DNA from: an uncultured Eubacteriales bacterium
GTDB taxonomy: Bacteria > Acidobacteriota > Aminicenantia > Aminicenantales > Aminicenantaceae
Direction: 5' to 3'
Length of the DNA: 64,000 bases
Assembly: GCA_964645765.1 (NCBI GenBank)
Contig: CAZYBE010000007.1
Location: forward strand, 2,644-66,643
The translations under genes were made by a program, and so were the position numbers. Every line of letters begins with the position of its first letter. Positions within the stretch are counted from its first letter, which is position 1. Under the pieces are notes generated by a model, which was given only the letters and a program-made list of their open reading frames with translations, was not told the DNA's origin and searched no databases. Below are positions 26,276 through 52,186 of the stretch, piece by piece.

Positions 26276-26341
26276 AGTCTTAAAAATAAATCTTTCAATT
26301 TAAATTGTCAATATATGGGTTAGCATCTTTTTTTCCATGAT

Positions 26342-26804: not shown

Positions 26805-26892
26805 AAAAAAGGGGACAGTCCCTTTTTTTCGTCGCGGTGTCGTGTCATTGTAGCGACCATATATAAAAAAGGGGACTGTCCCCTTTTCTGAG
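26805..26892. terminator. Two tandem A-run/GC-palindrome/T-run hairpins (AAAAAAGGGGACAGTCCCTTTTTTT and AAAAAAGGGGACTGTCCCCTTTT)
   Basis: Palindromes flanked by A and T tracts in the AT-rich region upstream of pilC. They have the form of bidirectional intrinsic terminators. A related GGGGACAGC..GCTGTCCCC hairpin occurs at 52214. Confidence 0.35.
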
Positions 26893-26934
26893 CGGAAGAG
26901 GAAATGCTCACTGACAGATCATCGACTTAAAAAG

Positions 26935-34422: not shown

Positions 34423-34462
34423 ATTGACTTCACCCTGGCGTTCGACTAAAATCTAACCCGCT

Positions 34463-34536
34463 GGCGGTGTAGCTCAGTTGGTCAGAGCATGCGGCTCATA
34501 TCCGCAGAGTCGGGGGTTCAAATCCCTCCACCGCCA
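34463..34536 (+). tRNA. tRNA with CAT anticodon (elongator Met, or Ile2 if lysidinylated)
   Basis: Cloverleaf with a 7-bp acceptor stem GGCGGTG/CACCGCC, D-arm GCTC..GAGC, anticodon stem TGCGG/CCGCA with loop CTCATAT, and T-arm GGGGG-TTCAAAT-CCCTC. G1-C72 argues against an initiator. tilS lies 90 bp downstream. Confidence 0.85.
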
Positions 34537-34625
34537 CTCCAAAGCTGCCATTGCCAACCAAAGAAAATTCCGTGTTGGGATGATGCGAATTCTTCCTCCA
34601 AAAAAATCTAAGAAGAGCCGCTGAG

Positions 34626-35990: not shown

Positions 35991-36216
35991 ATGTTATTAA
36001 CCCTTTAAGGTGAGAAAAATCCCCCTTAAAAGACTGCAAGAGGGAGAAAAAACCACCTGGGAATTCATCCTTTGCGGCTATTGACGGGAGCAGAGCAAAC
36101 GATTATTAATTAATTGCTTATTATATATTATTAAGAGGGACAAATTTAGGCATAAACTGTCTAAAATATTTAAAAATGAAAAAATCCTTGAGATTAAAAA
36201 GAGGATTTCCAAGGTT

Positions 36217-36231
36217 TGGAAAGGAAGGGGC
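36217..36231 (+). promoter_or_regulatory. Candidate sigma-54 (-24/-12) promoter upstream of the minor-pilin operon
   Basis: TGGaaaggaagGGGC has GG-N10-GC spacing, about 27 nt upstream of the GTG start at 36258. It overlaps the palindrome TTCCAAGGTTTGGAA at 36207-36221. A sigma-54 activator and kinase pair lies at 21.7-26.0 kb. Confidence 0.25.
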
Positions 36232-36257
36232 CCAGATTTTTTTAGGCGAGGAGTAAG

Positions 36258-36806
36258 GTGAGTAAAAAAATAATCGCTTCTTCTTCAAACAATCAAAAGG
36301 CCAGATTTTCATCGGCTGAAAAAGGCTTGACCCTGGTCGAGATTGTGGTCGTTATGGCCATCATGGGCGTTTTGGCCATGGTCTTATACTCCAACTTCAG
36401 AAGCACCACGGTGTTAAGAGAGCTGGAGGGCTCGGCAAGGGACATTCAGACAACTTTGCAGAGAGCCAGATTCCAGGCTGTCAGAATGCGTATGAATCAC
36501 CGAGTGACCTTCGTCGAGCAAAATAACACCTGGTATTTCAATATAGAGAGAGAAGATAGCCCGGGTGGCTGGAACGCTATACCAGGTTCCATAAAAAAAG
36601 CCATACCCACGAAATTCAACGTGACCGTGAACTTTCCCAATCAGACGGTCATGTTCTCGCCCCTCGGCTTCATCTCGAACTTTAATTCCTCTCAAAACGG
36701 CATCAGTCTTCAGTCTGCTGAGCTGCTGCGCAATAAACAGCCTGACCTGAGAGTGATCAATATTTATGCCGGAGGGGCTATTAAATACGCCAAAACAGCC
36801 AGTTAG
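36258..36806 (+). CDS. FimT/GspH-like minor (pseudo)pilin
   Basis: 182 aa. Prepilin motif KG|LTLVEIVVVMAIMGVLA after a 22-aa leader. FimT-like ARDIQTTLQRARFQAVR segment. Confidence 0.7.
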   Translation: MSKKIIASSSNNQKARFSSAEKGLTLVEIVVVMAIMGVLAMVLYSNFRSTTVLRELEGSARDIQTTLQRARFQAVRMRMNHRVTFVEQNNTWYFNIEREDSPGGWNAIPGSIKKAIPTKFNVTVNFPNQTVMFSPLGFISNFNSSQNGISLQSAELLRNKQPDLRVINIYAGGAIKYAKTAS

Positions 36807-36817
36807 GGAGTGAGGAG

Positions 36818-37309
36818 ATGAGTCAAAGAATAAAATTTGGATTTTTGCGGTTTCAAAATAATAAGAGGTCTTTGAAAAAGACTAAATCCAAAGGCACAGA
36901 AGAGAAGGGCTTTTCCTTGATAGAGGTTCTAATCGGAATTGCTCTTATCGGAATTGGCTTGTTAAGCCTGGCCCAGATGTTCTATTTGGGGGTGATGAAC
37001 AATACCAAGTCTGATAGGTTGACTCAGGCTACTTTTTTGGCCCAGCAGCAGATTGATTTTCTGCGCGGCCTCAACGCACAAGAGCTGAATGACCTGGCCG
37101 CCAACAGGATTGACGAAAATATAGATGTCAACGGCGATGGAGTCATCGATGCCAGAAGAATAACCCAGATTGTGCCTGCTGGATTTAGCTACAATGTGAC
37201 TGTTCTTGTTTTCTCAAGAGAGCGGAAAGATGATGACATCAATAACCTCGCTGCTGACCCAGTCAGATACCGTGTCCGAGCAGCCATCAATACAATTATC
37301 AGCAGGTGA
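36818..37309 (+). CDS. pilV: PilV-like minor pilin
   Basis: 163 aa. Prepilin motif KG|FSLIEVLIGIALIGIGLL after an unusually long (~31 aa) basic leader. Confidence 0.65.
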   Translation: MSQRIKFGFLRFQNNKRSLKKTKSKGTEEKGFSLIEVLIGIALIGIGLLSLAQMFYLGVMNNTKSDRLTQATFLAQQQIDFLRGLNAQELNDLAANRIDENIDVNGDGVIDARRITQIVPAGFSYNVTVLVFSRERKDDDINNLAADPVRYRVRAAINTIISR

Positions 37310-38478
37310 TAAATATGAACAAGCCTAAAAAACAGAAAAACGGGTTTACTATAGTGGAACTTTTAGCGGGGAGCGTCATCATGCTGGCCATCATCCTGAT
37401 GACTCTGACTCTTTATTCAAGGAGCAACAAGTTATCGGTTGACCAGCAGCAGCTTTCCGATGTTCAGCATGAGATTCGTTTTGCCATGTATTATATTTCT
37501 AGGGATATCAAGAACGCGGGAGCCGGCTTGCCCGACCAGTTTGCCGGGTATTTTCTTCAGGGAGTCAACAATGACGAGAATCAGATAAGCGGCGATCCCG
37601 ATAAGCCTGGCTATCAGTTTCAACCCGACAAGTTGACGATACTCGGGAACTCAGACCCATTAAGGCTTCTCATCCAGAGCTACAATCCAGGCTCAGGGCT
37701 TGTTCAACTGGAGGCAGCCCAATTGAGCCTCTATCCTTATAACGCCCACTCCTACCCGACTGACGCTCTTGGCTATATCAACAGACTCATCCTCATTCTT
37801 CCCAACCCGGAGTTGAACACCCTAAACGGGGAGCTGGGCCAAATCACGAACGTCGATTTCGGCACAAACCAGGTCTCATTCAATCGAATCGATGTGCCTC
37901 TGCCCAATAACTTGCAGCCAGGCGGAAATTCAGACGCCTACAATAAGGGCACTGTGAATTTTATCGAGCTCAGAACATACTGGCTGGATATCAACGGCAG
38001 TACCACCGGTCTTGTTGCCGGACAGGATGGCTATCTTGGAGTGCCCGGTGTTTTCTATCTCTCCCAGTATAATACCCTGACCAACGGCTTTGAGCACATG
38101 GCTCTGGCTCAGGGGGTTGAGGATTTCCAGGTTCAGTACCTTGGCGACCTCGACCATGACGGGAATCTGGACGACAATAACACCGATGGAGTCATCAATA
38201 ATCAAGACTACCAGAACTGGGATGAGACCAACTGGACAAATAACCCTGGAGTGGTCTCTGGAATTCGCAGCTTAAGATTCTGGGTTCTGGGAAAAACAGA
38301 GAGAGCCTTTACCAGCATTTCAGGGCTCACTCCGGACCAGATGAGGAATGTCTTCGGCAAGCCGAGCTTGGCTGATTCCCCTGCCGGGTCTCAAGCAGAC
38401 AAGCACCGAAGGTTTCTGCTGGAGTCAACAGTCAACATAAGGAATATGTCTTTGAGCCTCTACAATCTGGGAAGATAA
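37306..38478 (+). CDS. pilW: PilW-like minor pilin
   Basis: 390 aa. Prepilin motif NG|FTIVELLAGSVIM. Size and position fit PilW. Confidence 0.65.
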   Translation: MINMNKPKKQKNGFTIVELLAGSVIMLAIILMTLTLYSRSNKLSVDQQQLSDVQHEIRFAMYYISRDIKNAGAGLPDQFAGYFLQGVNNDENQISGDPDKPGYQFQPDKLTILGNSDPLRLLIQSYNPGSGLVQLEAAQLSLYPYNAHSYPTDALGYINRLILILPNPELNTLNGELGQITNVDFGTNQVSFNRIDVPLPNNLQPGGNSDAYNKGTVNFIELRTYWLDINGSTTGLVAGQDGYLGVPGVFYLSQYNTLTNGFEHMALAQGVEDFQVQYLGDLDHDGNLDDNNTDGVINNQDYQNWDETNWTNNPGVVSGIRSLRFWVLGKTERAFTSISGLTPDQMRNVFGKPSLADSPAGSQADKHRRFLLESTVNIRNMSLSLYNLGR

Positions 38479-38482
38479 GGAG

Positions 38483-39076
38483 TTGGCGATGAGAAAAAAG
38501 ATGGGATTCGATGGAAAAAAGGAGAAGGGGTCGGCTCTGGTCGTTGTGCTCCTTGTTCTTGCCTTTTTACAGATTGTCGGAATTGTGCTTTTAACGGTGA
38601 CGAGCAGTGGACCGAAAGTCGCTGAGAACGTGCGGGCACAGCAGCAGGCATCCAATGCGGCTGAGGCAGGTTTTGATGCTGTCTGGGCAAGCATTGAGGA
38701 GCTTTTTGCCCTGGGCACATGGGTCAACTTTGACGGACATTATTTCGTTGAGCCGACAGGCATCGACAATCCTCAGTCGAGCAATTACTTCAGAAAGTTA
38801 ACCGATGCAGAAATTTTGAGCCTGATCGACCCTGACGGAGACAAGAATCCTAATTTAAACAATGTCTATTGCTTTCGCCAGTCTTTCATTCAAAAGACTG
38901 ACGGCTCAGCGGATACCCGATTTTCCTTCACTGCCTTTTTTATCGATGACGAGGCCGGAGGCGGTGTGTCCGAGCCTGAGGATGCTCTTCTAGTCTGCAT
39001 CGGGGTTGTCGAGATGGGGAAAAACATCACAACGACAAGGATTGAAGTTGAGGTTGTCCTTGAATCAGGGACATGA
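38483..39076 (+). CDS. pilX: PilX-like minor pilin
   Basis: 197 aa. N-terminal hydrophobic helix (GSALVVVLLVLAFLQIVGIVLL). Position between pilW and pilY1. Confidence 0.5.
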   Translation: MAMRKKMGFDGKKEKGSALVVVLLVLAFLQIVGIVLLTVTSSGPKVAENVRAQQQASNAAEAGFDAVWASIEELFALGTWVNFDGHYFVEPTGIDNPQSSNYFRKLTDAEILSLIDPDGDKNPNLNNVYCFRQSFIQKTDGSADTRFSFTAFFIDDEAGGGVSEPEDALLVCIGVVEMGKNITTTRIEVEVVLESGT

Positions 39077-39098
39077 GCTATAGATAAAGAGGTGAAAG

Positions 39099-42000
39099 AT
39101 GAGTAAAAAAACAAAAACTTTTATGCTGTCCATTCCTTTAATTATAATTCTCTTCATCGCTATCTGCGTCTTCAGCCCGAGATTCTGGGCTCAAGAGACG
39201 TGCACTGAATACACCTCCACCTTCACCGAGGATTTTCACAACGACGCCTACAAGGACAAAACATACTCCTCTGTATCCTTCTGGCCGCCCGGACCAGTGA
39301 CTCTTGGCTGGCTTGGCGGACAATTAGCAATCTCCCAGCCGGCGGGGATGGGAGCCAAGATTCTGGTCTGTGATAGCGGTGACTTTACCGGCGACGGCTT
39401 GCCTGATTTAATAGGCTATGATATCAGCTTGCATACCGAATTGGACAAAACGAAAGGAAGATTAGTCCTTGTCAGGAATAAATTTGTGGATGCTAATAAA
39501 GATGGAGCCGACGATGATGGAGTCATTTTTCAAATCGATACAACAAAAATTTTCGACACGAATATAACAGGCGAGGTCGCTTCCATTACTGTCGGAGATT
39601 ATAACGGCGACGGACTTCTCGATTTTTTCTTTTGCATCAACAATCGAGACGATGCCGTTTTTAGTAGTACTTTTCGTGCTGTCATGTATATTAATTACGG
39701 GTCGGCTACTGACCCGAAATTCAAAGTGTACACCCAATCCCCCAACCTTAATTTCACAACGAAGTTCAAGAATGCCTTTATCTATATCCGCTGGTTGGGT
39801 GACCATATGTCTTCTGTGGACATCGACAAGGACGGAGATAAAGACATCCTCTTTGTCAGCCAGGATAAAATCTTTGTGGTCAGAAACCCGGGTAAAAGTA
39901 ATTGGAGCCTCAACAATTTTACAATCTCTGAGCTCAGTTATAACCAGCGTCCGGGCTTTCCCACCGGCGCACTCATGGGCGGTTCGGCCATCGAAGCCGC
40001 TGACTTCGACCGTGACGGAAACCTGGACGTCGTGGTCGGCTCAGTCGAGTGGGTTGACCATCTTGTTTATTATTCGAATGACGGCACAGGAAACTTTACC
40101 CGCTATGTCATTCCCATTACCGACAGCAGCTGTATCGGCACGACCGGCATTACTGCTGGAGACTTCAATAACGACGGCCTAATGGACCTCATGTGCTCGA
40201 ACGACCAATGGCGCACTCTCAATCTGGCCAGGCTTTACATGTACAAGAATAAAGGGAATATTGGAGGAGGCGGCATTCCTGTCAATTTCGAGTTTAAGTG
40301 CTGGAACGACTGTAACCCGATCAATCCCCCCATATACGATGATGACGTTATCGTTGCCGTTGATGTTGACAGTGACGGTGATATGGACATAATCACCGCA
40401 GATGCCAACGACTCTGGCAACTATTTCATGTTCACCAACGGATTATCTAACGTTTACACCCTGTTTGGCGAAGCCCGCTCGACCAACATCAGGGCCGGAC
40501 TGGATGAGAATCTCTATGCCGTGACCAAGGCCAAGATTAAAAACCTTCGCCAGGGAATCAAGGGGGGGTCTAGTTCCGGGCTTAAGATCACCTTCTACCT
40601 GTCGAATAACGGCTTGGATTGGGAGCTTTTCGCCACTTACGAAGGCTCTAATATCCATGATTACTCAGACCTTCCCGTCCACAAATTCGAGCACTTCGGC
40701 TCGAAGCTTTTCTGGAAGGCGGTGATGAGCGCTCCCGAAGACCCGATGTCAGACTTCGACAGTGCTTCCTATGATTCCCCTTGCATTTCCTCGATTGAGT
40801 TTGAGTGTATTCATGTCGAGCGGAAAGAGTATTCTCGGACATCAGCGGCGGCAACATATGTCGATTATAGAGGAAGCACCAGGAACTGTGTCATCGGCAG
40901 CTCATTCTACTACCCTGGCTGGCAGGGTCATTTAAGGGCCTACGATGTCTCCGCGATGACTCCTGAGAATTCGCCGTATTCTGTGCTGCGGACGGTCACC
41001 CAGTCAAACTTCTCTTCTCCGACAGGGAGAGAGATCCTGGTCGAGGGAGTTGAGATTCTATGGGATGCCGGGCAGCTTTTGAATCTCCGCTCGGCTGACG
41101 ATAGAAAAATCTACACCGCTATTCCTTCAGGGGAAAGATTGACGAGAGTCGATTTCACTGAGAGCTATGTCGATACTTTAGGGCCGATCATAAAGGATGT
41201 GAACAACGATAATGCGGCGCTGATCAACTTTGTCCGGGGCGCAGGCCGCAACTGGAAGTTGGGGGACAGCAACCACTCCACTCCGGTGGTCGTCGGCCCT
41301 CCGGAAGAGAATGCTTCGATGATGGGGAGCGGATACCAGAAGTTCAAGGATGACTTGAAGGAGCGGCACAAAGTCCTTTACCTCGGCGCCAACGACGGAA
41401 TGCTTCACTGCTTTGATATCGTCACTGGTGAAGAATTGTGGGCCTTCATACCCTACAACCTGCTGCCCAAATTGAGGAACATGTGCGACATTATTCCCGA
41501 TACTGGAGAGAGAACGTACATCAGGGATACTTATGTCGACGGCAGCCCGACTGCTGCCGATGTTTATGTCGACGCCACTGGAGACGGTATAAAAGAATGG
41601 ATTACTATTCTTGTCTGCGGTCAAGCTCAGGGTAAAGGAAGCACACTTGGCGGTGGATTGAACTATTATTTTGCTCTTGATGTCACCGACCCCAATATCC
41701 CCAAGCCTCTCTGGGAGTTTAAAGATAGCGCGATGGGTGAGACCTGGTCAGTTCCAGAGATCGGCAAAGTCCTCAAGGGAGGCAACATCACCTGGGCGGG
41801 CTTTGTCGGCTCAGGCTACGATAACGACAGCGACCATGTTGTCGGCAATCGATTCTATGTTGTTGACCTGGAGACCGGCAGCTCCTTCTGGAGTTTTACC
41901 GATTCTGGAGTCGATACCAGGACAAAACACGGCTTCACCTGGGATATTCAGAATGCCTTTGTGAGCTCTCCCTCCATAATGGACGTTGACCAGGATGGCC

Positions 42001-42716
42001 GTGTCGACCGCGTCTATTTTGCCGACCTTGACGGCCGAGTCTGGAGAGCAAATGTGAGCGCAGATTTTCAAAACGAAAGCTCCTGGTCGGCAACAAAAAT
42101 CTATGAAGATGCAAAGAATTTCCCGATTTCGAGCAAGCCTGCGGCCTTGATGAAATCCGGCGGATATCCCAGGATTTATTTCGGGACAGGCGGGGATGAT
42201 ACGGCTCCGAGCGATGTCAAATATTCCTTTGTCGCCCTTATCGATAAGGCGACTCCTGAAGTGGAGTGGTATCTCGGCGACCCGCTGCTCCTCAATCTTC
42301 CTGTCAGCAAACGTTCGGGCGTTTTAGACGCTGGCGAGAAAGTGTGGGGTGACCCGGTTATAGCCAATTCCGTCTGCTATTTCAACACCTTGAAAGGAAA
42401 CATAGAGAGCGTGGACCCCTGCGAAAACATCATCGGAGTCGGGAAACTTTACGCCAGGTATGTCGAGTCAATCGCAGGAGCGATTTTCGGAGCAACCGCT
42501 CTCAAAATTGAAACAGGGCCTACTGAGTCTCTTCAGCTTGAGATCAAAACCAGGGCTGCTGTGACTCTGGGTGAAAGGCAGACAACAGGGAGCGGGGTCA
42601 GGAAGAGGGCAGTCTACATTCAAGAATACAATTCGACCATCCAGAAGATGGAGCAGGCGGTCCTTTCTTCATTGAAAATCAGGTCGTGGAGAGAGATTTT
42701 CAGGATTATGAAATAA
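39099..42716 (+). CDS. pilY1: PilY1-like pilus tip adhesin, paralog 1 (N-terminal FG-GAP repeats plus C-terminal PilY1/PilC beta-propeller)
   Basis: 1205 aa with a signal peptide. Repeated FG-GAP/integrin-alpha-like motifs (TVGDYNGDGLLDFFF, ADFDRDGNLDVVVGS, AGDFNNDGLMDLMCS, DVDSDGDMDIITAD). C-terminal hallmark VLYLGANDGMLHCFDIVTGEELWAFIPYN and a Ca-binding-type loop DVDQDGRVD. Confidence 0.75.
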   Translation: MSKKTKTFMLSIPLIIILFIAICVFSPRFWAQETCTEYTSTFTEDFHNDAYKDKTYSSVSFWPPGPVTLGWLGGQLAISQPAGMGAKILVCDSGDFTGDGLPDLIGYDISLHTELDKTKGRLVLVRNKFVDANKDGADDDGVIFQIDTTKIFDTNITGEVASITVGDYNGDGLLDFFFCINNRDDAVFSSTFRAVMYINYGSATDPKFKVYTQSPNLNFTTKFKNAFIYIRWLGDHMSSVDIDKDGDKDILFVSQDKIFVVRNPGKSNWSLNNFTISELSYNQRPGFPTGALMGGSAIEAADFDRDGNLDVVVGSVEWVDHLVYYSNDGTGNFTRYVIPITDSSCIGTTGITAGDFNNDGLMDLMCSNDQWRTLNLARLYMYKNKGNIGGGGIPVNFEFKCWNDCNPINPPIYDDDVIVAVDVDSDGDMDIITADANDSGNYFMFTNGLSNVYTLFGEARSTNIRAGLDENLYAVTKAKIKNLRQGIKGGSSSGLKITFYLSNNGLDWELFATYEGSNIHDYSDLPVHKFEHFGSKLFWKAVMSAPEDPMSDFDSASYDSPCISSIEFECIHVERKEYSRTSAAATYVDYRGSTRNCVIGSSFYYPGWQGHLRAYDVSAMTPENSPYSVLRTVTQSNFSSPTGREILVEGVEILWDAGQLLNLRSADDRKIYTAIPSGERLTRVDFTESYVDTLGPIIKDVNNDNAALINFVRGAGRNWKLGDSNHSTPVVVGPPEENASMMGSGYQKFKDDLKERHKVLYLGANDGMLHCFDIVTGEELWAFIPYNLLPKLRNMCDIIPDTGERTYIRDTYVDGSPTAADVYVDATGDGIKEWITILVCGQAQGKGSTLGGGLNYYFALDVTDPNIPKPLWEFKDSAMGETWSVPEIGKVLKGGNITWAGFVGSGYDNDSDHVVGNRFYVVDLETGSSFWSFTDSGVDTRTKHGFTWDIQNAFVSSPSIMDVDQDGRVDRVYFADLDGRVWRANVSADFQNESSWSATKIYEDAKNFPISSKPAALMKSGGYPRIYFGTGGDDTAPSDVKYSFVALIDKATPEVEWYLGDPLLLNLPVSKRSGVLDAGEKVWGDPVIANSVCYFNTLKGNIESVDPCENIIGVGKLYARYVESIAGAIFGATALKIETGPTESLQLEIKTRAAVTLGERQTTGSGVRKRAVYIQEYNSTIQKMEQAVLSSLKIRSWREIFRIMK

Positions 42717-42843
42717 GAATGTCTTCTTCGTTGCCCATTCTAGGCCGTTTTTTTTGCCAAAGCAAAGAGTCGTCAAAAATCAAGATTAAAAGTCTGGGTT
42801 GTGCTTGAACGAGGGATGCGAGTTATAGTAAAAGAGGTAAAAA

Positions 42844-45800
42844 ATGAGTAAAAAAACAAAAAATTTTATCCTGTCTATTCCTTTAATTATAATCCTCTTC
42901 ATCGCTATCTCCGTCTTCGGCCCGAGATTCTGGGCTCAAGAGATGTGCACCGAATTCACGTCCCTCTTTACCGAGAATTTTCACAGCGAGGACTATAAGG
43001 ACAAAACATACTCTTCTGTATCCTTCTGGCCGCCCGGGCCAGTGACTCTCAGCTGGCTTGGCGGACAATTAAACATCTCCCAGCCGGTCGGGATGGGAGC
43101 TATGATTTATGTCTGCGATAAGGGTGACTTTGACAGCGACGGCTTGCCTGATTTGATAGGTTATGATATCAGCGCAGGCTACGCGAATGGACAATTGGTC
43201 CTTGTCAGGAATAAGTTTGTGGATGCTAACCATGACGGAATCGACGATGACGGAATCATTTTTCAAGTCGATACCTCAAAAATTTTCGAGCAGAATATAG
43301 CAGGCCAGGTCCCTTCCATTACTGTCGGAGATTATAACGGCGACGGGCTTCTCGATTTTTTCTTCTGCGTCAACAATCAAGACGTGGCAATATACGATCA
43401 ATTTCGCGCCCACATGTATATTAATACTGGAACAGCGACTAACCCGAATTTCAACACCTACACCTCAGCCCCCAACCTCGACTTCACATCAAAGTTCCAG
43501 AGCAAGCCTATTTATATCCGCTGGGCAGGTGACCATATGTGCTCTGTGGACATCGATAAGGACGGGGATACAGACATTCTCTTTATGGGCCAGAATAAGA
43601 TTTGGCTGGTAAGAAACCCGGGTCCGGGTAATTTCAGTCTTGCCAATTTTACAATCGCTGAAGTGAGCTATAACACGCGTCCGGGCTTTCCCACCTACTC
43701 ATACATGGGCGGTTCGGCCATCGATGCTGCTGACTTCGACCGTGACGGAGACCTGGACATCGTTGTCGGCTCAGTCGAGTGGGTCGACCACCTTGTTTAT
43801 TATTCGAACGACGGCACGGGAAACTTCACCCGCTATGATATTCCCATTTCCAACAGCAGCTGTATCGGCACCACTGCCATTTCTTCTGGAGACTTCGATA
43901 ACGATGGCCGAATGGACCTCATGTGCTCAAACGACAGCCACCGCACTGGGAATCTGGCCAAGATTTATATGTTCAAGAATAAAGGAAATAATGAAGGAGG
44001 CGGCATTCCTGTCAATTTCGAGTTTAAGTGCTTAAACGACTGCAACCCGATCAACCCCCCAGAAAACGATGATGACGTTCTCGTTGCCATTGATTACGAC
44101 CAAGACGGCGATATGGATGTCATCACCGCTGATGCTAACGATTCAGGCGACTATTTCATGCTCACCAACGGGTTAGCCGACGTTTACACCCTCTATGGCG
44201 AAGCCTGCTCAACCAACGTCCTGACTGGAATGGACGAGAGTCTCTATGCCGTGACCAAGGTCGGGATTAAAACCCTTCAGCAGGGAATAAGGGGAGGGAC
44301 CAGTTACGGGCTTACAATCACCTACTACCTGTCGAATAACGGGATAGATTGGGAGCTTTTCGCCACTTACGAGGGCTCTAATATCCATGACTACTCCAAC
44401 CTTCCCCCCCACACCTTCGAGCACTATGGCTCGAAGCTTTTCTGGAAGGCGGTGATGAACGCCCCTGAAGACCAGATGTCAGACTTCACCAGTGCTTCCT
44501 ATGACACTCCTTACATTTCCTCGATTCAGTTTGAATGCTTTCATGTTGAGCGGAAAGAGTATTCTCGGACGTCAGCGGCGGCAACATTTGTCAGTCATGA
44601 AGGCAGCCTCAGGACCTACATCATCGGCAGCTCATTCTACTATCCGGGCTGGCAGGGCCATTTAAGGGCCTATGATATGTCCGCGATGACTCCTGAGAAT
44701 TCGCCGTATTCTGTGCTGCGGACCATCACCCAGTCAAACTTCTCCTCTCCGACAGGGAGGAACATCCTGGTCGAAGGAGTCGAGATCGTGTGGGATGCCG
44801 GGCAGCTTTTGAGTCTCCGCTCGGCTGACGACAGAAAAATCTACACCGCTATTCCTTCAGAGACAAGATTGATAAGAGTCGATTTCACCGCGAGCAATGC
44901 CGAAACTTTAGGGCCGATAATAAAGGATGTGAACAACGATAATGCTGCGCTGATCAACTTTGTCCGGGGCGCAGGCCGCGACTGGAAGTTGGGGGACAGC
45001 AACCACTCCACTCCGGTGGTCGTCGGCCCTCCGGAAGAGAATGCTTCGATGATGGGGAGCGGATACCAGAAGTTCAAGGATGACTTGAAGGAGCGGCACA
45101 AAGTCCTTTACCTCGGCGCCAACGACGGAATGCTTCACTGCTTTGATATCGTCACTGGTGAAGAATTGTGGGCCTTCATACCCTACAACCTGCTGCCCAA
45201 ATTGAGGAACATGTGCAACATTGATCCCGATACCGGAGAGAGGACTTACACCAGGGATACCTATGTCGACGGCAGCCCGACTGCTGCCGATGTTTATATC
45301 GACGCCAATGGAGACGGTATAAAAGAATGGATTACTATTCTTGTCTGCGGTCAAGCGCAGGGTAAAGGAAGCACACTTGGCGGCGGATTGAACTATTATT
45401 TTGCTCTTGATGTCACCGACCCCAATAGCCCCCAGCCTCTCTGGGAGTTTACAGATAGCGCAATGGGAGAGACCTGGTCGGTGCCGGCTATTGGAAAAAT
45501 CGTTAAAAACGGCAGTGAGGCCTGGGTAGGCTTTATCGGCTCGGGCTATGACAATGATCCCGACAATGTTGCCGGCAATCGATTCTATGCTGTTGACCTT
45601 GAGACTGGCAGCTCCTTCTGGAGTTTTACCGATTCTGGGGTCGATACCAGGACAGAACACGGCTTCACCTGGGATATTCAGAACGCCTTTGTGGGTTCTC
45701 CTTCCACAATTGATATTGACCAGGACGGCCGTGTCGACCGGGTCTATTTTGTCGACCTTGACGGCCGAGTCTGGAGAGCGTATGTGAGTCTGAATTTTCA

Positions 45801-46446
45801 AGATGAAAGCTCCTGGCCGGTGACAAAAATCTATGAGGATGCAAAGAATTTCCCTATCTTGAGCAAGCCTGCGGTCTGGATGAAATCCGGCGGATATCCC
45901 AGGATATACTTCGGGACAGGAGGAGATGAGAGGGCTCCGGCCGATGTCAAATATTCCTTTGTCTCCCTTATCGATAAGCCGACTCCTGAAGTGGAGTGGT
46001 ATCTCGGCGACCCAGCAGTCCTTGACCTTCCTGTCAACAAAGATCTTGGCGATTTGGAGGTTGGGGAGAAAGTGTGGGTTGACCCGGTCATAGCCAATTA
46101 CATCTGCTATTTCAACACCTTGAAAGGAAATATAGAGAGCGTAGACCCCTGCGAAAATATCATCGGAATCGGGAGGCTTTATGCCAGGTATGTCGAGTCA
46201 GTCGCAGGAGCGATTTTCGGAGCAACGGCCCTGAGAACTGAAACTGGAGCTGTGGAGTCTCTTCAGCTTGAGATCAAGACCAGGGGCGCTGGGACTCTGG
46301 CTGAAAGACAGACAACAGGCACCAGCGGCAGGAAGAGGGCGGTCTATATTCAGGAATACAATTCGACCATCCAGAAGATGGAGCAGACTGTTCTTGCGAC
46401 TCTGAAAATAAAGTCCTGGAGAGAGATTTTCAGGATTATGAAATAA
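42844..46446 (+). CDS. pilY1: PilY1-like pilus tip adhesin, paralog 2 (tandem diverged duplicate)
   Basis: 1200 aa, about 80% identical to paralog 1 with the same domain order. Substitutions cluster in the N-terminal FG-GAP region and in surface loops. The RBS region is duplicated (GAGTTATAGTAAAAGAGGTAAAAAATG versus GAGCTATAGATAAAGAGGTGAAAGATG). Confidence 0.75.
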   Translation: MSKKTKNFILSIPLIIILFIAISVFGPRFWAQEMCTEFTSLFTENFHSEDYKDKTYSSVSFWPPGPVTLSWLGGQLNISQPVGMGAMIYVCDKGDFDSDGLPDLIGYDISAGYANGQLVLVRNKFVDANHDGIDDDGIIFQVDTSKIFEQNIAGQVPSITVGDYNGDGLLDFFFCVNNQDVAIYDQFRAHMYINTGTATNPNFNTYTSAPNLDFTSKFQSKPIYIRWAGDHMCSVDIDKDGDTDILFMGQNKIWLVRNPGPGNFSLANFTIAEVSYNTRPGFPTYSYMGGSAIDAADFDRDGDLDIVVGSVEWVDHLVYYSNDGTGNFTRYDIPISNSSCIGTTAISSGDFDNDGRMDLMCSNDSHRTGNLAKIYMFKNKGNNEGGGIPVNFEFKCLNDCNPINPPENDDDVLVAIDYDQDGDMDVITADANDSGDYFMLTNGLADVYTLYGEACSTNVLTGMDESLYAVTKVGIKTLQQGIRGGTSYGLTITYYLSNNGIDWELFATYEGSNIHDYSNLPPHTFEHYGSKLFWKAVMNAPEDQMSDFTSASYDTPYISSIQFECFHVERKEYSRTSAAATFVSHEGSLRTYIIGSSFYYPGWQGHLRAYDMSAMTPENSPYSVLRTITQSNFSSPTGRNILVEGVEIVWDAGQLLSLRSADDRKIYTAIPSETRLIRVDFTASNAETLGPIIKDVNNDNAALINFVRGAGRDWKLGDSNHSTPVVVGPPEENASMMGSGYQKFKDDLKERHKVLYLGANDGMLHCFDIVTGEELWAFIPYNLLPKLRNMCNIDPDTGERTYTRDTYVDGSPTAADVYIDANGDGIKEWITILVCGQAQGKGSTLGGGLNYYFALDVTDPNSPQPLWEFTDSAMGETWSVPAIGKIVKNGSEAWVGFIGSGYDNDPDNVAGNRFYAVDLETGSSFWSFTDSGVDTRTEHGFTWDIQNAFVGSPSTIDIDQDGRVDRVYFVDLDGRVWRAYVSLNFQDESSWPVTKIYEDAKNFPILSKPAVWMKSGGYPRIYFGTGGDERAPADVKYSFVSLIDKPTPEVEWYLGDPAVLDLPVNKDLGDLEVGEKVWVDPVIANYICYFNTLKGNIESVDPCENIIGIGRLYARYVESVAGAIFGATALRTETGAVESLQLEIKTRGAGTLAERQTTGTSGRKRAVYIQEYNSTIQKMEQTVLATLKIKSWREIFRIMK

Positions 46447-46462: not shown

Positions 46463-47239
46463 TCAGTAAGTCAGCCCCCGGAACAGTCCGAGATAAGCCG
46501 TGATCAGCTCTTTTCCCCAGACAAGGGAGACAAAAGCCGAGGGCGCTAAAAAGGTTCCGAAGGGAAGAGAGTACTGGAAGCTTTTTTTTCTGAAGATGAT
46601 GAAGAAAACGCCGACTATCGCCCCGGCGAAAGAGGCGATAATCAGGGTTAAAAAAGCCTGCTTCCAGCCAAGATAAGCGCCTATCATCAGCATCAAAGTC
46701 ACATCGCCCATTCCCAGACCCTCTTTTTTTCTTAAGAAATAATAGGCGGCGTAGATGAAAAGCAGGAATCCCGCTCCGGCCACTGCCCCGACCAGAGCTT
46801 GAGTCAGATTTAAATCTTTGCGGAAAAAGGAGTAGATGACGGCCAGAACAAGCCCTGGCAGGGTTATCTCATCGGGCAAAACCTGGTGGCCATAATCGAT
46901 GAAGGCCAGGACGACGAGTGCGCTGGAGAAGAGGCAGGAGGCAAAGAAGAAGAAACTCAAGGAATGATGAGCATAGAGGAGAATAAAGCTCGAGGGGGTT
47001 AAGAATTCGACCAGCGGATAAGTGAAGGATATTCTTTCCCGGCAATAGCGGCACCTTCCTCGCAGGACCAGGAAAGAGATAAGGGGAATGTTGTCATAGA
47101 ACTTTATCCTCTGCCTGCAGCGAGGGCAGGAGGATGGAGGCTTGATGATGCTCATTCCCAGCGGAAGCCTGTAGATCACGACATTGAGGAAACTTCCCCA
47201 GGCAAGTCCAAACAGGATGATGAAGACTATCTCTTCCAT
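46463..47239 (-). CDS. pilD: Prepilin peptidase PilD (A24 family)
   Basis: 258 aa. N-terminal zinc-ribbon CPRCRQ..CRYC and polytopic membrane peptidase domain. Convergent with pilY1. Confidence 0.85.
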   Translation of the reverse strand: MEEIVFIILFGLAWGSFLNVVIYRLPLGMSIIKPPSSCPRCRQRIKFYDNIPLISFLVLRGRCRYCRERISFTYPLVEFLTPSSFILLYAHHSLSFFFFASCLFSSALVVLAFIDYGHQVLPDEITLPGLVLAVIYSFFRKDLNLTQALVGAVAGAGFLLFIYAAYYFLRKKEGLGMGDVTLMLMIGAYLGWKQAFLTLIIASFAGAIVGVFFIIFRKKSFQYSLPFGTFLAPSAFVSLVWGKELITAYLGLFRGLTY

Positions 47240-48102
47240 GGAATTGTCGGAGCCTTCGCTTCCCCGCTCTTCGGGTCATAAAGGTAGTCTTTTCCGTCCA
47301 GGTCCTTGGGCAGGGAGCTGAGAAACCCGGCCCTGACCAGTTGGCTCAGGTCCATCGGGTTTCGCCCAAATTTACCCTTGAATTTTTCCACAGCCTCCTT
47401 GATCTTCTGGGTATCGATGGTGGCTTTGGCCCGGTAGAGATGATTGGAGGCAATTTTCTTGATTCTGTCGTCTGTTGCTGTCTGGTAAATCTCAAGCCAG
47501 GCCTGCAAGGCACTTTGGTAGTCCATGGCCTTGTAGAGAGAGTCAGCATAAAGCCGCCGGACAATGTCCGGAGCGCCTTTGACCTCCATCGCCTTCTTGT
47601 AATATTCCTGAGCCAGCTTCTGGTCCTTTTTTACCCTCTGGGCATAATGTCCGCCTGTGTAAGGGAAAAGCCACTGGTCTGGATTATTCTCCAGGCCCTT
47701 GTCCAGAATTTTTAAAGCTAAATTTACGTCCCTGGCCTCGTAGGCGGCGATCAAAGCTCCGATATCATAGGGGTCAAGATAGTGCGGGTCCAGCTCAGAG
47801 ATGACGGAAAAGATATGGTCAAGATACTCGAACCTGTTAGGGATGTTGTAATCGCTGTAATACTGGATGGCCCAGACGTAGATGATGTCTGCCAAGATGG
47901 AAGAGTAGCCGAAGGTCACGAACTTGAGGTATTTTCCCGAAGGAATGTAGATGATGGAAGAGCCGGGGATTTTTTTTCTCAAGATGCTGTCGGTTTCAAC
48001 CTTCAAGGCCATGAAAATGCCGCAGCTCAGGATGAGGAAGAAGGCCAAGAAAATAGTGCTGAAATCTTTATCGACTCTTGATTTTTTTCTTGCAGCCATC
48101 AA
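47227..48102 (-). CDS. Membrane-anchored helical-repeat protein (possible PilG-like accessory of the ABC module)
   Basis: 291 aa. N-terminal TM anchor plus TPR-like helical repeats. Translationally coupled between the ABC permease and pilD. Confidence 0.4.
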   Translation of the reverse strand: MMAARKKSRVDKDFSTIFLAFFLILSCGIFMALKVETDSILRKKIPGSSIIYIPSGKYLKFVTFGYSSILADIIYVWAIQYYSDYNIPNRFEYLDHIFSVISELDPHYLDPYDIGALIAAYEARDVNLALKILDKGLENNPDQWLFPYTGGHYAQRVKKDQKLAQEYYKKAMEVKGAPDIVRRLYADSLYKAMDYQSALQAWLEIYQTATDDRIKKIASNHLYRAKATIDTQKIKEAVEKFKGKFGRNPMDLSQLVRAGFLSSLPKDLDGKDYLYDPKSGEAKAPTIPWKR

Positions 48103-48863
48103 ATGAAGTCTCTCTTCCTGAAAACAAGAAGGGCCAAGGTCAGGATAAAGGCGGTGTAGAAAATGCCGTAGAGGGTGGAGAAGAGGTAAATCTTCGGCGG
48201 GATGGGAAGATTTTGCACAATCTCCGTCTTAAAATTGAAATTCTCAAGGTCTGGGACAAAATGGTAGAGGAGCTGAGCCAGGGTCTTTCCCACTCCCGGC
48301 TTGACCTTTTTGATGAGAGTCTCAAGCCCCCAGGAGAAATGGCCGATGAGATAAAAGGCGAGGGAGAAAAGGGAACTCAGGATCGGCGTTGAGAAGCAAG
48401 AGAAGAGAAGGGCGACAGAGGTGATGAGGCAGAGCTCAAGAAAAATGAAGAGGATGGCGACGAGCATCTTCCATTCAATCTTGAAGGTGTGGAGAAAGAT
48501 GACAGCAAGATAGATGAGGCTCATCAGGAGGAGCATGACCAGAAGGGTTAAGACCAGTCCAAAATATTTTCCCAAGAGAAACTGGTAGCGGTGGATGGGC
48601 TTGACCAAAAGGCTGTGAATTGTTTTTTTGTCGATTTCTTTGTAGACCAGCCCCACGCCCATCAATATGGCCATTAAAGCCCCGAAGAGGGAAAGGGAGG
48701 AAAGGCCGACGTCCTTGATGATTTTCACCCGGTCGCCAACTGTGAGCAGGGCTAAGATGCGGGAAAAGACAATGCAAACTGCGGCAAAGAAAAGGAGGAG
48801 GTAGAGGATGCGGTCACGGATGGCTTCTTTGAAGGTGTTGAGAGCAATCGCCGCTATTTTCAT
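48099..48863 (-). CDS. ABC-2 family transporter permease (PilI-like)
   Basis: 254 aa with six predicted TM helices. Start overlaps the stop of the ABC ATPase gene. Confidence 0.7.
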   Translation of the reverse strand: MKIAAIALNTFKEAIRDRILYLLLFFAAVCIVFSRILALLTVGDRVKIIKDVGLSSLSLFGALMAILMGVGLVYKEIDKKTIHSLLVKPIHRYQFLLGKYFGLVLTLLVMLLLMSLIYLAVIFLHTFKIEWKMLVAILFIFLELCLITSVALLFSCFSTPILSSLFSLAFYLIGHFSWGLETLIKKVKPGVGKTLAQLLYHFVPDLENFNFKTEIVQNLPIPPKIYLFSTLYGIFYTAFILTLALLVFRKRDFI

Positions 48864-49777
48864 CTTTGCTTGACCACCTCCACAAATATATCCTCGAGGG
48901 TTTCAGTCCTTGGGGTAATGCTGTGGATTTTTCCTTTTTGAGACCAGACAAGCTCCAGGATTTTCTCCAGGTTTTCTTCCCTCAAGACTCTGAGCAGTAT
49001 TCTCCCCCCCTTCACCGAAAAGCTCTCAGCCAGGCCCTTGAGCTTGTTCTCCTCGATGCCGGAAAGGATGACTTCTGTAAAATAGATTTTTTCAGAGACA
49101 AGCTCGTGAAGGGCTCCTTGGCTAACGACCTCTCCGCTGACGATGATGGCCACCCTGTCACAGACCATCTCGATGTCCTGGAGGATGTGGGAGGAGAGAA
49201 AAACGGTCTTTCTTTCTTCTTTGAGCCGGACGATAATGTCCCTTACTTCTTTCCTTCCCAGCGGGTCAAGGCCTCCAAGCGGCTCATCGAGGATAACCAA
49301 GGAAGGGCTGTTAAGAAGGGCTTGGGCCAGGCCTACTCTCTGCAGCATGCCGCGAGAGAACTTTCGAAGCTGGAGGTCTAAAGCATTTTCCAGGCCGACA
49401 AGCTGAAGAAGTTCTTTGACCCTCTCCTCTCTCTCCTTTTTTCCCATGAGAAAGAGCTGGCTACAAAAATCGAGAAATTCTGAAGCAGTCAGATAATCAT
49501 AGAAATAGGGATTCTCAGGAAGGTATCCGATTTTTTCTTTGGCCTGGAGGGAAAAAGGGTGAAGGCCGAAAATCTCTATGTTTCCTTTCTCAGGGCGGAC
49601 GAGGCCAAGGATGCACTTGATGGTTGTGGTTTTGCCTGCTCCATTCGGGCCGAGGTAACCAAAGATTTCTCCCTCCTCGACGGAGAGCGATATGCCCTTG
49701 AGGATTTTCTTTGTTTTTGGAATAAAGCCGAGCTTGAAGGATTTATGGAGGTCTTCAACTTTTAATACGACAGCCAT
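48860..49777 (-). CDS. ABC transporter ATP-binding protein (PilH-like)
   Basis: 305 aa. Walker A GPNGAGKTTT, ABC signature LSRGMLQRVGLA, and Walker B ILDEP. Confidence 0.85.
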   Translation of the reverse strand: MAVVLKVEDLHKSFKLGFIPKTKKILKGISLSVEEGEIFGYLGPNGAGKTTTIKCILGLVRPEKGNIEIFGLHPFSLQAKEKIGYLPENPYFYDYLTASEFLDFCSQLFLMGKKEREERVKELLQLVGLENALDLQLRKFSRGMLQRVGLAQALLNSPSLVILDEPLGGLDPLGRKEVRDIIVRLKEERKTVFLSSHILQDIEMVCDRVAIIVSGEVVSQGALHELVSEKIYFTEVILSGIEENKLKGLAESFSVKGGRILLRVLREENLEKILELVWSQKGKIHSITPRTETLEDIFVEVVKQR

Positions 49778-49810
49778 GAAAACTCGTCCCTATTATACGG
49801 AAATCAGCAA

Positions 49811-52186
49811 TTATTTCAAATTCTCTTCAAACAGCTTGAAGATTCGCTTGTATTCATCCGCCCAGGAGGAGCTGTTATGAAAGGTATGATTTTCTACTGG
49901 ATAGAATGCCACCTCCCAGTTTTCTTTCTTGAGTTCTATCAGGCGCTGGACGAGCCTCGCCGTATCCTGAAAATGGACGTTGGTGTCGACCATGCCGTGG
50001 CAGATGAGCAGAGCGCCTTTGAGCCCTTCGGCAAAATAAATGGGAGAGCTCTGTTTATAGGCTTCGCTGTCCTTCTGGGGAAGGTTAAGAATATCGACCG
50101 TGTAGCCTGGATGGTAGTGAGCCCAGTCGCTGACAGGCCTCAGGGCAGCTCCTGCCTTGAACTTTTCTGGAGTCTTGAACATGGCCATCAGCGTCAGAAA
50201 GCCTCCATAGCTCCCGCCATAGAGCCCGATTCTCTCCGGATTGACGTTCAATTCCTTGACCAGGTAGCTCGAAGCATCGACGATATCGTCAAGGTCCTTT
50301 CCTCCCATGTGGCGGTAGATGGCTACGCGGCAGTCTCGTCCGTAGCCGGCGCTTCCTCTGTAATCGACTTCCAGGACAAGATATCCATTTTTAATCAAAA
50401 AATTATGGAACAGGTATTCCCTGAAGTAAGTGCTGCTCCAGCCCTTGTGCGCATTCTGGAGGTAGCCGGCACCGTGGATGAAGATAACCGCCGGCCTTTG
50501 GGGATGCCAGTTTTTCGGTCTGTAAAGCCGGCAATAGACATCAAATCCGTCGCGGGCCTTGAAGGAGAGGACCTCAGGCTCATACCAGGGATAAGAGCGG
50601 AATTCTTCTGTTGTCGACAGGGTCAGCTTGCGGGCCTCAGCGCCGGACTTGTTTGCCTGGATGTAGAGTTCAGGAGGCTTGTTGCTCGAAGAGTAGAGAA
50701 TGGCAAGATGCGATTCGTCAGGTGAGAGAAAGACTTCGTTGTGGCCGGTCATCGAAGTGATTTTCGTCCTCTTCCCTCCTTCCACAGGCATGGAATAGAA
50801 ATGATGCTCGCCTGGGTGCTCTTCATTGGAGGCGAGATACCATCGCTTTCCGTCCTTGGAGAGCTGGGCTACGTAGACTTCAAACTTGCCATCAATGAGC
50901 TTCGTCTTCTCTTTTCCGTCAAGCGATGCCCTGTAGAGATGGGCAAAGCCATCTTTCTCAGAGATGTAATAGATGGATTGGCTCGAAGGCGCCCAAATAA
51001 TATCTGTCAGCCCCAAATCGCCAATCCAGGCGTCGTCATGAACATTCTCGATAACGGTTGTTTTTCCGCTCTCCAGCTCAAGAAGCAGAAGCCATTCATC
51101 TTTGCGGTCTTCGGAGTTGGCAGTCAGAGCACATTTTTTCCCATCCGGAGACCAGTAGAAACTCGAGGGAAAGATTTTTCTTTCCCCTTGATTGTAATCG
51201 AGCCATTTCACCTCGCCATTTGAGACAGACATAATCCCGGCCTTGTATTCATTAGAGGATTGAGCAGCCTTGGTGTGCGATTCAATCGTTTCAGTGAATC
51301 CGGTTCTGGTGACGTAGTTGGGGACAATCGTCGTCTTGGCCTGGGGCACTTTTTCTGAGATTCTGAAGATGACATACTTTTCATCCGGGGAAAGGTCGAG
51401 AGAGACAACATCCTGCTCCTCGCTCAGAAAAAAGGGCTTTCTTCGAGTCTGGCTGCCAAAAAAGGGAAACATCCCCCTCTGGCCCGTTCTCTGTTCAGCT
51501 CTGCTGAATTCTTGAAAAAGCTCCCGCTGCTGGTCTGTGTACCATTTTTCGACTTCATCCGGTTTCTTTGCCGGAGGAGGAGCCTTTTTCGAGAAAGATG
51601 TCATCTGGCGCAGGCCTCGGTCCTGAAGAGAAAGCAGGAAGAGGTTGCCTTGGCTGGTAAAATAGATTTTTTCCTGGTCAAAGGTGAAATTGACGTTTGT
51701 CTCCCTTTCATCGGTGGTGATGAGCTCAGTCATTTTTCCTGAAGGAATGTCGAGAAGGCTGATGTCGCCTCCCCGGACCAAAAGGGCTCTTTTTTGCTCT
51801 CTATCGAATTTAATCTCTATGCCAGGAAAGCCGAAGCCCGAAAAGCGGGAGAAGAAAGAGGAGGGCGCGGGCGGGAGCTTGAGAATGTCATCCAGAGTAA
51901 CTTTCTGGGGGATTAACTCTGTCTTTGATAGTGCGTAGAACTCTGCACTTTTTTCTCCAGGTTTTTGCCAGCGGAAGTAGAGCTTTTTTCCGTCCACAGA
52001 CCAGAGAATGCTTGAGGGAGAATTGCCGACGAGCTCCGGGCCTTCCATGATGCCATCGATGGTCAGTTTAAATTCTTTTGGCTTTTCTTTTTTCTCCTGA
52101 GCTTGAGCGCCTCTAAAAATGATCAGAGGAATAAGGATTAAGAGAAAAAGATGTTTTTTTGTAAATTGTTTCATTTCGTCCTCCAT
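49811..52186 (-). CDS. Secreted S9-family serine peptidase with N-terminal beta-propeller (prolyl oligopeptidase/DPP-like)
   Basis: 791 aa with a signal peptide. TolB/WD-like propeller repeats. C-terminal alpha/beta hydrolase with GGSYGG nucleophile motif, Asp and His. Confidence 0.8.
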   Translation of the reverse strand: MEDEMKQFTKKHLFLLILIPLIIFRGAQAQEKKEKPKEFKLTIDGIMEGPELVGNSPSSILWSVDGKKLYFRWQKPGEKSAEFYALSKTELIPQKVTLDDILKLPPAPSSFFSRFSGFGFPGIEIKFDREQKRALLVRGGDISLLDIPSGKMTELITTDERETNVNFTFDQEKIYFTSQGNLFLLSLQDRGLRQMTSFSKKAPPPAKKPDEVEKWYTDQQRELFQEFSRAEQRTGQRGMFPFFGSQTRRKPFFLSEEQDVVSLDLSPDEKYVIFRISEKVPQAKTTIVPNYVTRTGFTETIESHTKAAQSSNEYKAGIMSVSNGEVKWLDYNQGERKIFPSSFYWSPDGKKCALTANSEDRKDEWLLLLELESGKTTVIENVHDDAWIGDLGLTDIIWAPSSQSIYYISEKDGFAHLYRASLDGKEKTKLIDGKFEVYVAQLSKDGKRWYLASNEEHPGEHHFYSMPVEGGKRTKITSMTGHNEVFLSPDESHLAILYSSSNKPPELYIQANKSGAEARKLTLSTTEEFRSYPWYEPEVLSFKARDGFDVYCRLYRPKNWHPQRPAVIFIHGAGYLQNAHKGWSSTYFREYLFHNFLIKNGYLVLEVDYRGSAGYGRDCRVAIYRHMGGKDLDDIVDASSYLVKELNVNPERIGLYGGSYGGFLTLMAMFKTPEKFKAGAALRPVSDWAHYHPGYTVDILNLPQKDSEAYKQSSPIYFAEGLKGALLICHGMVDTNVHFQDTARLVQRLIELKKENWEVAFYPVENHTFHNSSSWADEYKRIFKLFEENLK

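Follow-up and report, generated by a model that had tools for sequence, protein, structure and literature searches.

A PilGHI-type ABC module with reading frames that overlap into pilD in an Aminicenantes pilus locus

PilG, PilH and PilI make up an ATP-binding cassette (ABC) system that has reportedly been known since 1998 to be essential for Myxococcus pili, and it is said to be often treated as a myxobacterial peculiarity. In Myxococcus xanthus the three proteins (MXAN_5782-5780; TCDB 3.A.1.144.5) are encoded between pilA and pilD. A comparable set of genes, coding for an ABC ATPase, an ABC-2 permease, an accessory membrane protein and the prepilin peptidase PilD, is present in a 64,000-nt stretch of DNA (termed the window; GenBank assembly GCA_964645765.1, contig CAZYBE010000007.1, positions 2,644–66,643) from an uncultured bacterium of the Aminicenantaceae (Acidobacteriota). 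PilGHI itself is already known; the present member of this kind comes from another phylum, and its operon is permuted and PilD-locked. What is new here is the breadth and the rigidity of the unit, an apparent relationship of the permease to NosY, a predicted pilin-like domain in PilG and a predicted near-leaderless promoter.

Three papers (PMC3724824, citing Wu et al. 1998; PMC3924187; PMC5544727) state that M. xanthus deletion mutants in pilG, pilH and pilI have no pili and no social (S-) motility, and they describe a requirement for PilGHI in the export or translocation of pilin.

NosFY is an ABC-2 engine that drives the periplasmic protein NosD and is a precedent for mechanotransduction rather than transport. 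It forms part of NosDFY of Pseudomonas stutzeri (PDB 7O0Y), an ABC-2 module that matures N2O reductase. A further ABC-2 system with an accessory membrane protein, GldA/GldF/GldG of the Bacteroidota, is tied to a surface-motility apparatus.

Organization of the pilH-pilI-pilG-pilD operon

The four genes form a pilH-pilI-pilG-pilD operon, i.e. one conserved unit of overlapping reading frames with its own promoter, which lies beside a type IVa pilus gene set (Table 1). The initial annotation had described four minus-strand genes with overlapping start and stop codons, running from 49777 to 46463, and the open reading frames are present at exactly these positions. The junction of the ATPase and permease genes reads ATGA, a 4-nt overlap. 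The junction of the permease gene with pilG reads TTGATG; the overlap is 4 nt if translation starts at the TTG and 1 nt if it starts at the ATG at 48099. The stop of pilG and the start of pilD overlap by 13 nt (all three junctions were read from the sequence). The assignment of an ATPase, an ABC-2 permease and a tetratricopeptide repeat (TPR) membrane protein directly upstream of pilD is confirmed. The PilD amino acid sequence displays both CxxC pairs and the GxGD motif.

The predicted sigma-70-like promoter sits in the 33-nt gap between the ATPase gene and the S9 peptidase gene upstream of it, and 14 nt separate the end of its -10 box from the start codon of the ATPase gene (ATG at 49777). 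In related species the element recurs in front of the ATPase gene whatever the upstream gene is, as the exact motif in 26 of 73 relatives and in a relaxed form in 48 of 73, and it usually ends 12–14 nt before the ATPase ATG. Because the -10 box ends so near to this ATG, the mRNA is expected to be nearly leaderless, with a 5′ untranslated region of a few nt; the predicted conserved promoter would make the whole four-gene operon so.

The S9 peptidase gene was considered as an additional member of the operon and was rejected: it is directly upstream in only 21 of 73 related species and is separated from the ATPase gene by the conserved promoter. Its association with the operon is loose and lineage-specific.

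Table 1. Positions of the operon, its predicted elements and other features of the window, with glycosyltransferase and flippase genes of loci outside it (L numbers; positions are those of each locus)
Feature	Position (nt)	Strand	Description
ABC ATPase gene (pilH-like)	49777..48860	-	305 aa; PF00005 (ABC_tran) 1.4e-28 and DrrA1-3_C C-terminal domain
Q-loop of the ATPase	49522-49533	-	reads LPEN; residues 86-89
ABC-2 permease gene (pilI-like)	48863..48099	-	254 aa; ABC2_membrane_2 4.3e-15; ~6 hydrophobic segments
Accessory protein gene (pilG-like)	48102..47227	-	291 aa; one N-terminal hydrophobic segment, then helical repeat
PilG hydrophobic signal anchor	47998..48054	-	residues 17-35; from hydropathy
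PilG juxtamembrane motif	47854..47955	-	IIYIPSGKYLK..GY..LADIIYVWAIQYY; residues 50-83; invariant or nearly invariant columns
PilG TPR superhelix (predicted)	47479..47844	-	residues ~87-208
PilG C-terminal pilin-like (GspG-like) domain (predicted)	47230..47478	-	residues 209-291; motif LP.D..G..Y.YD
pilD, prepilin peptidase/N-methyltransferase	47239..46463	-	258 aa; A24_N_bact 1.2e-34 and Peptidase_A24 1.2e-21
Sigma-70-like promoter TTGAAA-16-TATAAT	49792..49819	-	11/12 consensus match; predicted from sequence
S9/dipeptidyl peptidase IV-type peptidase gene	49811-52186	-	signal peptide; upstream of the ATPase gene, gap of 33 nt
Type IVa pilus gene set	26935..46446	+	convergent on pilD; from Pfam
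Secretin gene	32272-34422	+	N-terminal TPR and C-terminal Cohesin domain
tRNA, anticodon CAT	34463-34537	+	89 nt upstream of tilS
tilS	34626-35990	+	between secretin and minor pilins
Two tandem PilY1-like paralogues	39099-42716, 42844-46446	+	~1200 aa each; FG-GAP repeats
Glycosyltransferase/flippase genes	L085 8918-12480; L087 9013-10710; L088 4674-7313; L171 8900-10648, 11414-14104; L172 9679-14071		downstream of pilA

Relationship to Myxococcus PilGHI and distribution of the unit

An M. xanthus PilA sequence was used as the query to reach the Myxococcus locus. Its top match, with 100% identity, is the PilA of Myxococcus sp. AB036A, and the contig concerned (L004) displays the gene order pilS-pilR-pilA-pilG-pilH-pilI-pilD-pilS2-pilR2-pilMNOPQ. 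The pilG product of L004 is 99% identical to a protein named PilG of M. xanthus DK 1622. The Myxococcus comparison set is this 13.6-kb locus; between it and the window, each window protein has a single mutual match when BLAST is run in both directions.

Pairwise BLASTP gives 39% identity between the ATPase and Myxococcus PilH over 304/305 aa, including the C-terminal domain (E = 3e-79), 31% identity between the permease and PilI over 250 aa without gaps (E = 3e-38), 25% identity between the accessory protein and PilG over 246 aa (E = 5e-14) and 40% identity between the two PilD proteins (E = 4e-45). Several representatives of the PilG family (P0298, P0322, P0323, P0342) score about 120–130 bits against both the window PilG and Myxococcus PilG, so that the family is continuous. 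A search with the PilG family profile also retrieves the entry “PilG [M. xanthus DK 1622]”.

The PilH-like ATPase has the expected motifs, i.e. Walker A (GPNGAGKTT), signature (FSRGMLQR), Walker B (LVILDEP) and an intact H-loop, and carries a DrrA-like C-terminal domain. Its Q-loop departs from the canonical LPQE: LPE[NQS] is found in all 137 aligned sequences of the PilH clade, including that of Myxococcus, which has the same LPEN Q-loop and the same variant of the signature motif as the ATPase of the window.

Generic ABC-2 exporters such as NatAB and GldAF had been named in the initial annotation as the alternative to a PilGHI relationship, and the operon could in principle be an efflux pump of the NatAB, DrrAB or GldAFG type that stands beside pilD by chance. 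The best curated matches of the ATPase are indeed generic, namely the drrA model TIGR01188 (208.8 bits) and the GldA equivalog model TIGR03522 (202 bits), but both scores are far under the NCBIfam cut-offs (312.45 and 402.6, respectively; the GldA score is about half of what is needed), and the NatA model is absent from the top NCBIfam matches. A partner of the GldG or DrrB kind is absent; unlike GldG, the accessory protein has TPR and pilin-like features, and the context is that of type IV pili and not of gliding or type IX secretion. In addition, all three proteins match PilH, PilI and PilG specifically, and pilD is the neighbour in every one of 132 loci, a linkage that is seen again in other phyla. 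A generic efflux pump is thus very improbable.

The trio had been called analogous to Myxococcus PilG, PilH and PilI. The kinship is stronger than that: because of the BLASTP matches, the continuous PilG family and the GldA and DrrA scores far below their cut-offs, the three proteins are homologous and not merely analogous, and judged by sequence their identity as PilGHI orthologues is very probable.

The two systems share three homologous components of similar length (305, 254 and 291 aa in the window; 326, 255 and 303 aa in Myxococcus for PilH, PilI and PilG, respectively), and both adjoin pilD inside a type IVa pilus gene cluster. They differ in gene order, which is H-I-G-D in the window and A-G-H-I-D in Myxococcus. 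Unlike its Myxococcus counterpart, the operon in the window neither adjoins pilA nor is co-transcribed with it, and it has its own predicted near-leaderless promoter. The 13-nt overlap of pilG and pilD contrasts with a 23-nt gap between pilI and pilD in Myxococcus. The host also belongs to another phylum (Acidobacteriota, class Aminicenantia), and the identity of the three proteins is only 25%–39%.

Conservation of the unit was assessed by scanning one genome per GTDB species with the PilG motif ADx[ILV]Y[LIV]W[AS]IQ. The motif is present in at least 391 GTDB species, and the best 80 of the 391 species loci, all from Aminicenantes, were used together with 80 metagenome loci and two individual look-ups (L089, L090), i.e. 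162 loci. PilG identity to the window PilG ranges from 37% to 87% in this set, and the closest homologues are labelled Candidatus Aminicenantes (Acidobacteriota, class Aminicenantia).

The gene pilD comes directly after pilG in each of the 132 loci whose downstream sequence extends to 900 nt or more; the linkage is therefore kept in relatives. Upstream, the ATPase and permease genes directly precede pilG in 120 of the 121 loci with enough room. Gene order and strand are retained across the 162 loci, which goes beyond what chance would give, and the order is the same in 80/80 GTDB species loci. The junctions are also conserved: the 4-nt overlap of pilH and pilI is found in 127 of 132 loci, the 13-nt overlap of pilG and pilD in 127 of 153 (142 of 153 show an overlap of any length), and the pilI/pilG junction has a median of +3 nt. 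As these loci are phylogenetically related, the counts denote conservation within a clade and not independent events.

As the scans yielded chiefly Aminicenantes, the breadth across phyla rests on nine individually fetched loci (L004, L085–L090, L171, L172). Two more distant loci of the Acidobacteria type, L089 (“Acidobacteria bacterium” metagenome-assembled genome) and L090, also have the H-I-G-D order. A second architecture, pilA-pilG-pilH-(inserted genes)-pilI-pilD beside pilB/pilT/pilC and a PilS-PilR fusion, is found in distant members of the PilG family: L085 (Candidatus Binatia), L087, L172 and L171 (“Deltaproteobacteria bacterium”). The arrangement of pilA, pilG, pilH, pilI and pilD beside pilB, pilT, pilC and pilSR genes is common to L085, L087, L172 and the Myxococcus locus L004. 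In L086, a metagenome-assembled genome labelled Bdellovibrionota, pilG-pilH-pilI is present with no adjoining pilD. Sharma et al. (2018, PMC6060248) report pilGHI near type IVa pilus genes in Desulfuromonadales and Deferrisoma.

In an exhaustive search the PilG family comprises 2082 clusters at 50% identity when the threshold is E ≤ 1e-3 and 822 when it is E ≤ 1e-10. In the light of these clusters, of the at least 391 species with the motif and of the several phyla represented, the linkage cannot be called uncommon outside Myxococcota; that view is unsupported because of the Binatia-, Bdellovibrionota- and Acidobacteria-type loci and the report of Sharma et al. The PilGHI(+PilD) arrangement is widespread rather than rare.

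PilGHI is seen from this to be a widespread, tightly conserved module, and its PilG family, with thousands of sequence clusters, has no Pfam family. In Acidobacteriota it appears to be locked to PilD by translational coupling. The PilG motif LADxxYxWxIQY together with a C-terminal LPxDPxGxxYxY can serve as an annotation signature for the system.

The PilG protein and possible modes of action

PilG of the window (291 aa) has no Pfam match above threshold. Its homologues likewise have a short basic N-terminus followed by a single hydrophobic stretch. No other part of the family is as conserved as the juxtamembrane motif, whose predicted local distance difference test (pLDDT) values are low in the isolated model; the motif is proposed as a docking site for PilI.

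The C-terminal module of about 80 residues displays a long helix, a short helix and a β-hairpin. A profile of this module has as its top PDB matches only major pseudopilins of the type II secretion system, GspG, EpsG, PulG and XcpT (8 distinct sequences, E = 1.2e-5 to 5e-4). Foldseek ranks the same pseudopilins first, with E-values that are non-significant, and T2SSG is the only non-TPR Pfam family matched by several members of the PilG family (7 of 46). From profiles and models, PilG appears to be a membrane-anchored TPR protein that ends in a pilin-fold domain nearest to GspG. No mention of a pilin-like domain in PilG was found in the literature searched.

PilG appears to have a pilin-like head but is no pilin, because a class III signal peptide (prepilin motif) is absent from its sequence. 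It differs from GspG, PulG, EpsG, XcpT and type IV pilins in this respect and in lacking the hydrophobic α1-N, and because of these two absences it is taken to be neither a substrate of PilD nor a polymerising subunit. In addition, its β-sheet is truncated relative to GspG-type pseudopilins, and the domain forms the C-terminal part of a fusion with a TPR domain.

Annotation of PilG as a lipoprotein, with ILSC at residue 27, was rejected. The box is non-canonical and the Cys is missing in more distant homologues.

TPR proteins encoded with type IV pilus genes are also known among the pilotins PilF, PilW and Tgl. With these as a model, PilG could be a TPR protein anchored in the inner membrane that helps to assemble the secretin or the alignment complex, with PilHI merely energising or regulating it and with a pilin-like C-terminus that is coincidental. 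A weak match to the type_IV_pilW model TIGR02521 (21.1 bits, E = 1.9e-4) and the absence of a separate pilotin-like lipoprotein in the window are in line with this, but the score is far under the cut-off of 154, and dozens of unrelated TPR proteins rank at least as high as PilF and PilW. Whereas PilF, PilW and Tgl are outer-membrane lipoproteins, PilG has a signal anchor, no canonical lipobox (the Cys being kept only in close relatives) and an ABC transporter as partner. The secretin of the window has a TPR of its own at the N-terminus, and the GspG-like signal arises independently in sequence and in structure. An assembly factor of the pilotin type is considered improbable.

Among solved structures, the PilH/PilI pair appears by sequence to be most like NosFY. 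The PilI family profile has a single match in the PDB, a full-length one to NosY of NosDFY (E = 3e-5), and the nearest solved matches of the ATPase include NosF (E = 7e-45). Both systems would have an ABC-2 engine with a dedicated periplasmic partner, which is a prediction in the case of PilG. The partner differs, i.e. TPR and pilin-like in PilG vs. the β-helix of NosD, and the similarity is remote. Neither a NosD-like partner nor a nos gene context is present at the locus, and the resemblance to NosDFY would be one of mode of action only.

From this, a mode of action can be tentatively proposed in which a PilH2-PilI2 ABC-2 engine acts as a mechanotransducer and not as a solute pump, as in NosFY. 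PilG would dock on PilI by its conserved juxtamembrane motif, and ATP hydrolysis would move the periplasmic TPR arm of PilG. The pilin-like head, possibly with the TPR surface, would bind the head domains of pilins or minor pilins, or the pilus base. As a result, pilins processed by PilD could be stabilised, extracted or handed over to the assembly platform. The 13-nt overlap, by translational coupling to pilD, may set the stoichiometry, ensure co-production and place both activities together in the inner membrane. This combination of mechanotransducer and pilin mimic is regarded as possible rather than probable.

Stated more generally, PilGHI may not be a transporter; it may instead be a second, periplasm-facing ATP-driven motor of type IV pili, similar to NosFY, with a PilG arm that ends in a non-polymerising pilin mimic. 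In Acidobacteriota a single mRNA, nearly leaderless and with overlaps throughout, would yield this motor and the prepilin peptidase in stoichiometric amounts. The proposal is speculative. If true, it points to a widespread, overlooked accessory engine at the pilin maturation or hand-over step in many non-model phyla.

An export function has to be set against this. PilHI, with or without PilG, may export or flip a lipid-linked sugar or polysaccharide, either for periplasmic O-glycosylation of pilin or for a pilus-associated exopolysaccharide, and the loss of pili would then be secondary. A glycan-export role fits better with the Binatia-type loci, because in several of these glycosyltransferase genes are interleaved with pilG, pilH and pilI. 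The genes concerned encode GT-C (TMTC_DUF1736+TPR, PMT/PMT_2), GT2 and Polysacc_synt flippase proteins, and they interleave with or follow pilG-pilH-pilI in L085, L087, L088, L171 and L172. GT4 and Glycos_transf_4 genes also flank the H-I-G-D unit in L089 and L090. A further possible parallel is XapD (GSU1501) of Geobacter sulfurreducens, an ABC ATPase encoded downstream of pilA and interpreted as an exopolysaccharide exporter (PMC5585712, PMC4974642). On the side of a pilus role, a xapD mutant has no detectable PilA, which parallels the pilGHI phenotypes (bioRxiv 10.1101/114900).

Several observations speak against glycan export. There is no glycosyltransferase gene in or beside the operon in the window or in the Aminicenantes loci examined, nor in the pilA-G-H-I-D cluster of Myxococcus, and the invariant partner is PilD and not a glycosyltransferase. 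The PilI family profile matches NosY and no Wzm/TarG-type chains in the PDB, the permease scores under the cut-off for PF01061, and the ATPase is without a Wzt-like carbohydrate-binding domain. A TPR and pilin-like accessory protein, moreover, suggests a protein partner. Glycan export is accordingly regarded as rather unlikely.

It should be noted that a number of points weigh against the pilin-handling motor and, in part, against the assignment of the operon to pili. The NosY match is weak (27 bits at the E-value given above), and the glycosyltransferase genes of the Binatia-type loci count here as well. The window PilG itself fails to reach Pfam T2SSG, and the pilin-like assignment rests on the family profile and on AlphaFold2 models from shallow alignments (15 and 26 sequences). 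For the predicted periplasmic topology of PilG, the sole basis is hydropathy together with an N-terminus that resembles a signal peptide in Myxococcus PilG; the charges flanking the transmembrane segment are not decisive. A major pilin gene (pilA) is neither beside the operon nor elsewhere in the 64-kb window. The Aminicenantes operon is known from its genes alone, the pilus phenotype being established only for M. xanthus. Finally, the 162 loci are related to one another, and the two collections may have some of them in common.

With these points considered, a role of the operon in pilus biogenesis is likely, and it is reasonably probable, with somewhat less assurance, that the operon is the Aminicenantes/Acidobacteriota counterpart of Myxococcus PilGHI dedicated to type IVa pilus biogenesis. 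Together with the wide, tight conservation of the module and its link to PilD, the kinship with NosFY and the pilin-fold domain, both as predicted, turn an “ABC transporter of unknown substrate” into testable hypotheses of pilin handling in the inner membrane.

Two apparent gene fusions were set aside. P0473 (L088, positions 607–2508), a 633-aa apparent PilG-PilH fusion that resembled Rosetta-stone evidence, was rejected as a frameshift artefact: its linker and C-terminus read as out of frame and Arg/Pro-rich, and the contig has 0.24x coverage. P0310, which appears to join PilG to the start of PilD, is probably a frameshift or a fragment. Apparent PilG-PilH and PilG-PilD fusions among public gene calls seem to be spurious, with the overlapping frames as their source.

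The position of the Binatia-type glycosyltransferase genes directly downstream of pilA suggests a pilin O-glycosylation island.

The type IVa pilus gene set and other features of the window

The type IVa pilus gene set that converges on pilD contains pilC, pilB, four small genes at the position of pilMNOP, the secretin gene, the tRNA and tilS genes, minor pilin genes (FimU/GspH-, PilV-, PilW- and PilX-like) and two PilY1-like genes. Canonical prepilin motifs are found at two positions only, 36324 and 36908. Genes for a PilS/PilR-like kinase and sigma-54 regulator are situated further upstream.

In four of the loci outside the window (L085 positions 3702–5813, L086 3722–5755, L087 3330–5309 and L172 4064–6160) the regulator near pilA is a single polypeptide that combines a 6TM_PilS sensor, a sigma-54 activator and a helix-turn-helix domain. 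These polypeptides have no kinase domains on record.

The stretch of approximately 900 nt that separates the PilS-like kinase gene from pilC (positions 26040–26935) displays no convincing open reading frame and no Rfam match; Rfam gives nothing relevant in the window as a whole.

The tRNA with anticodon CAT is plausibly tRNA-Ile2, the substrate of TilS; its gene would then stand beside that of the enzyme which modifies it, amid the pilus genes. The position of tilS between the secretin and minor pilin genes is kept in relatives. The combination of TPR and Cohesin domains in the secretin is unusual for PilQ and is conserved in the related loci L002 and L003. In the same two relatives, three DUF7305 genes occupy the position of the PilY1-like genes.

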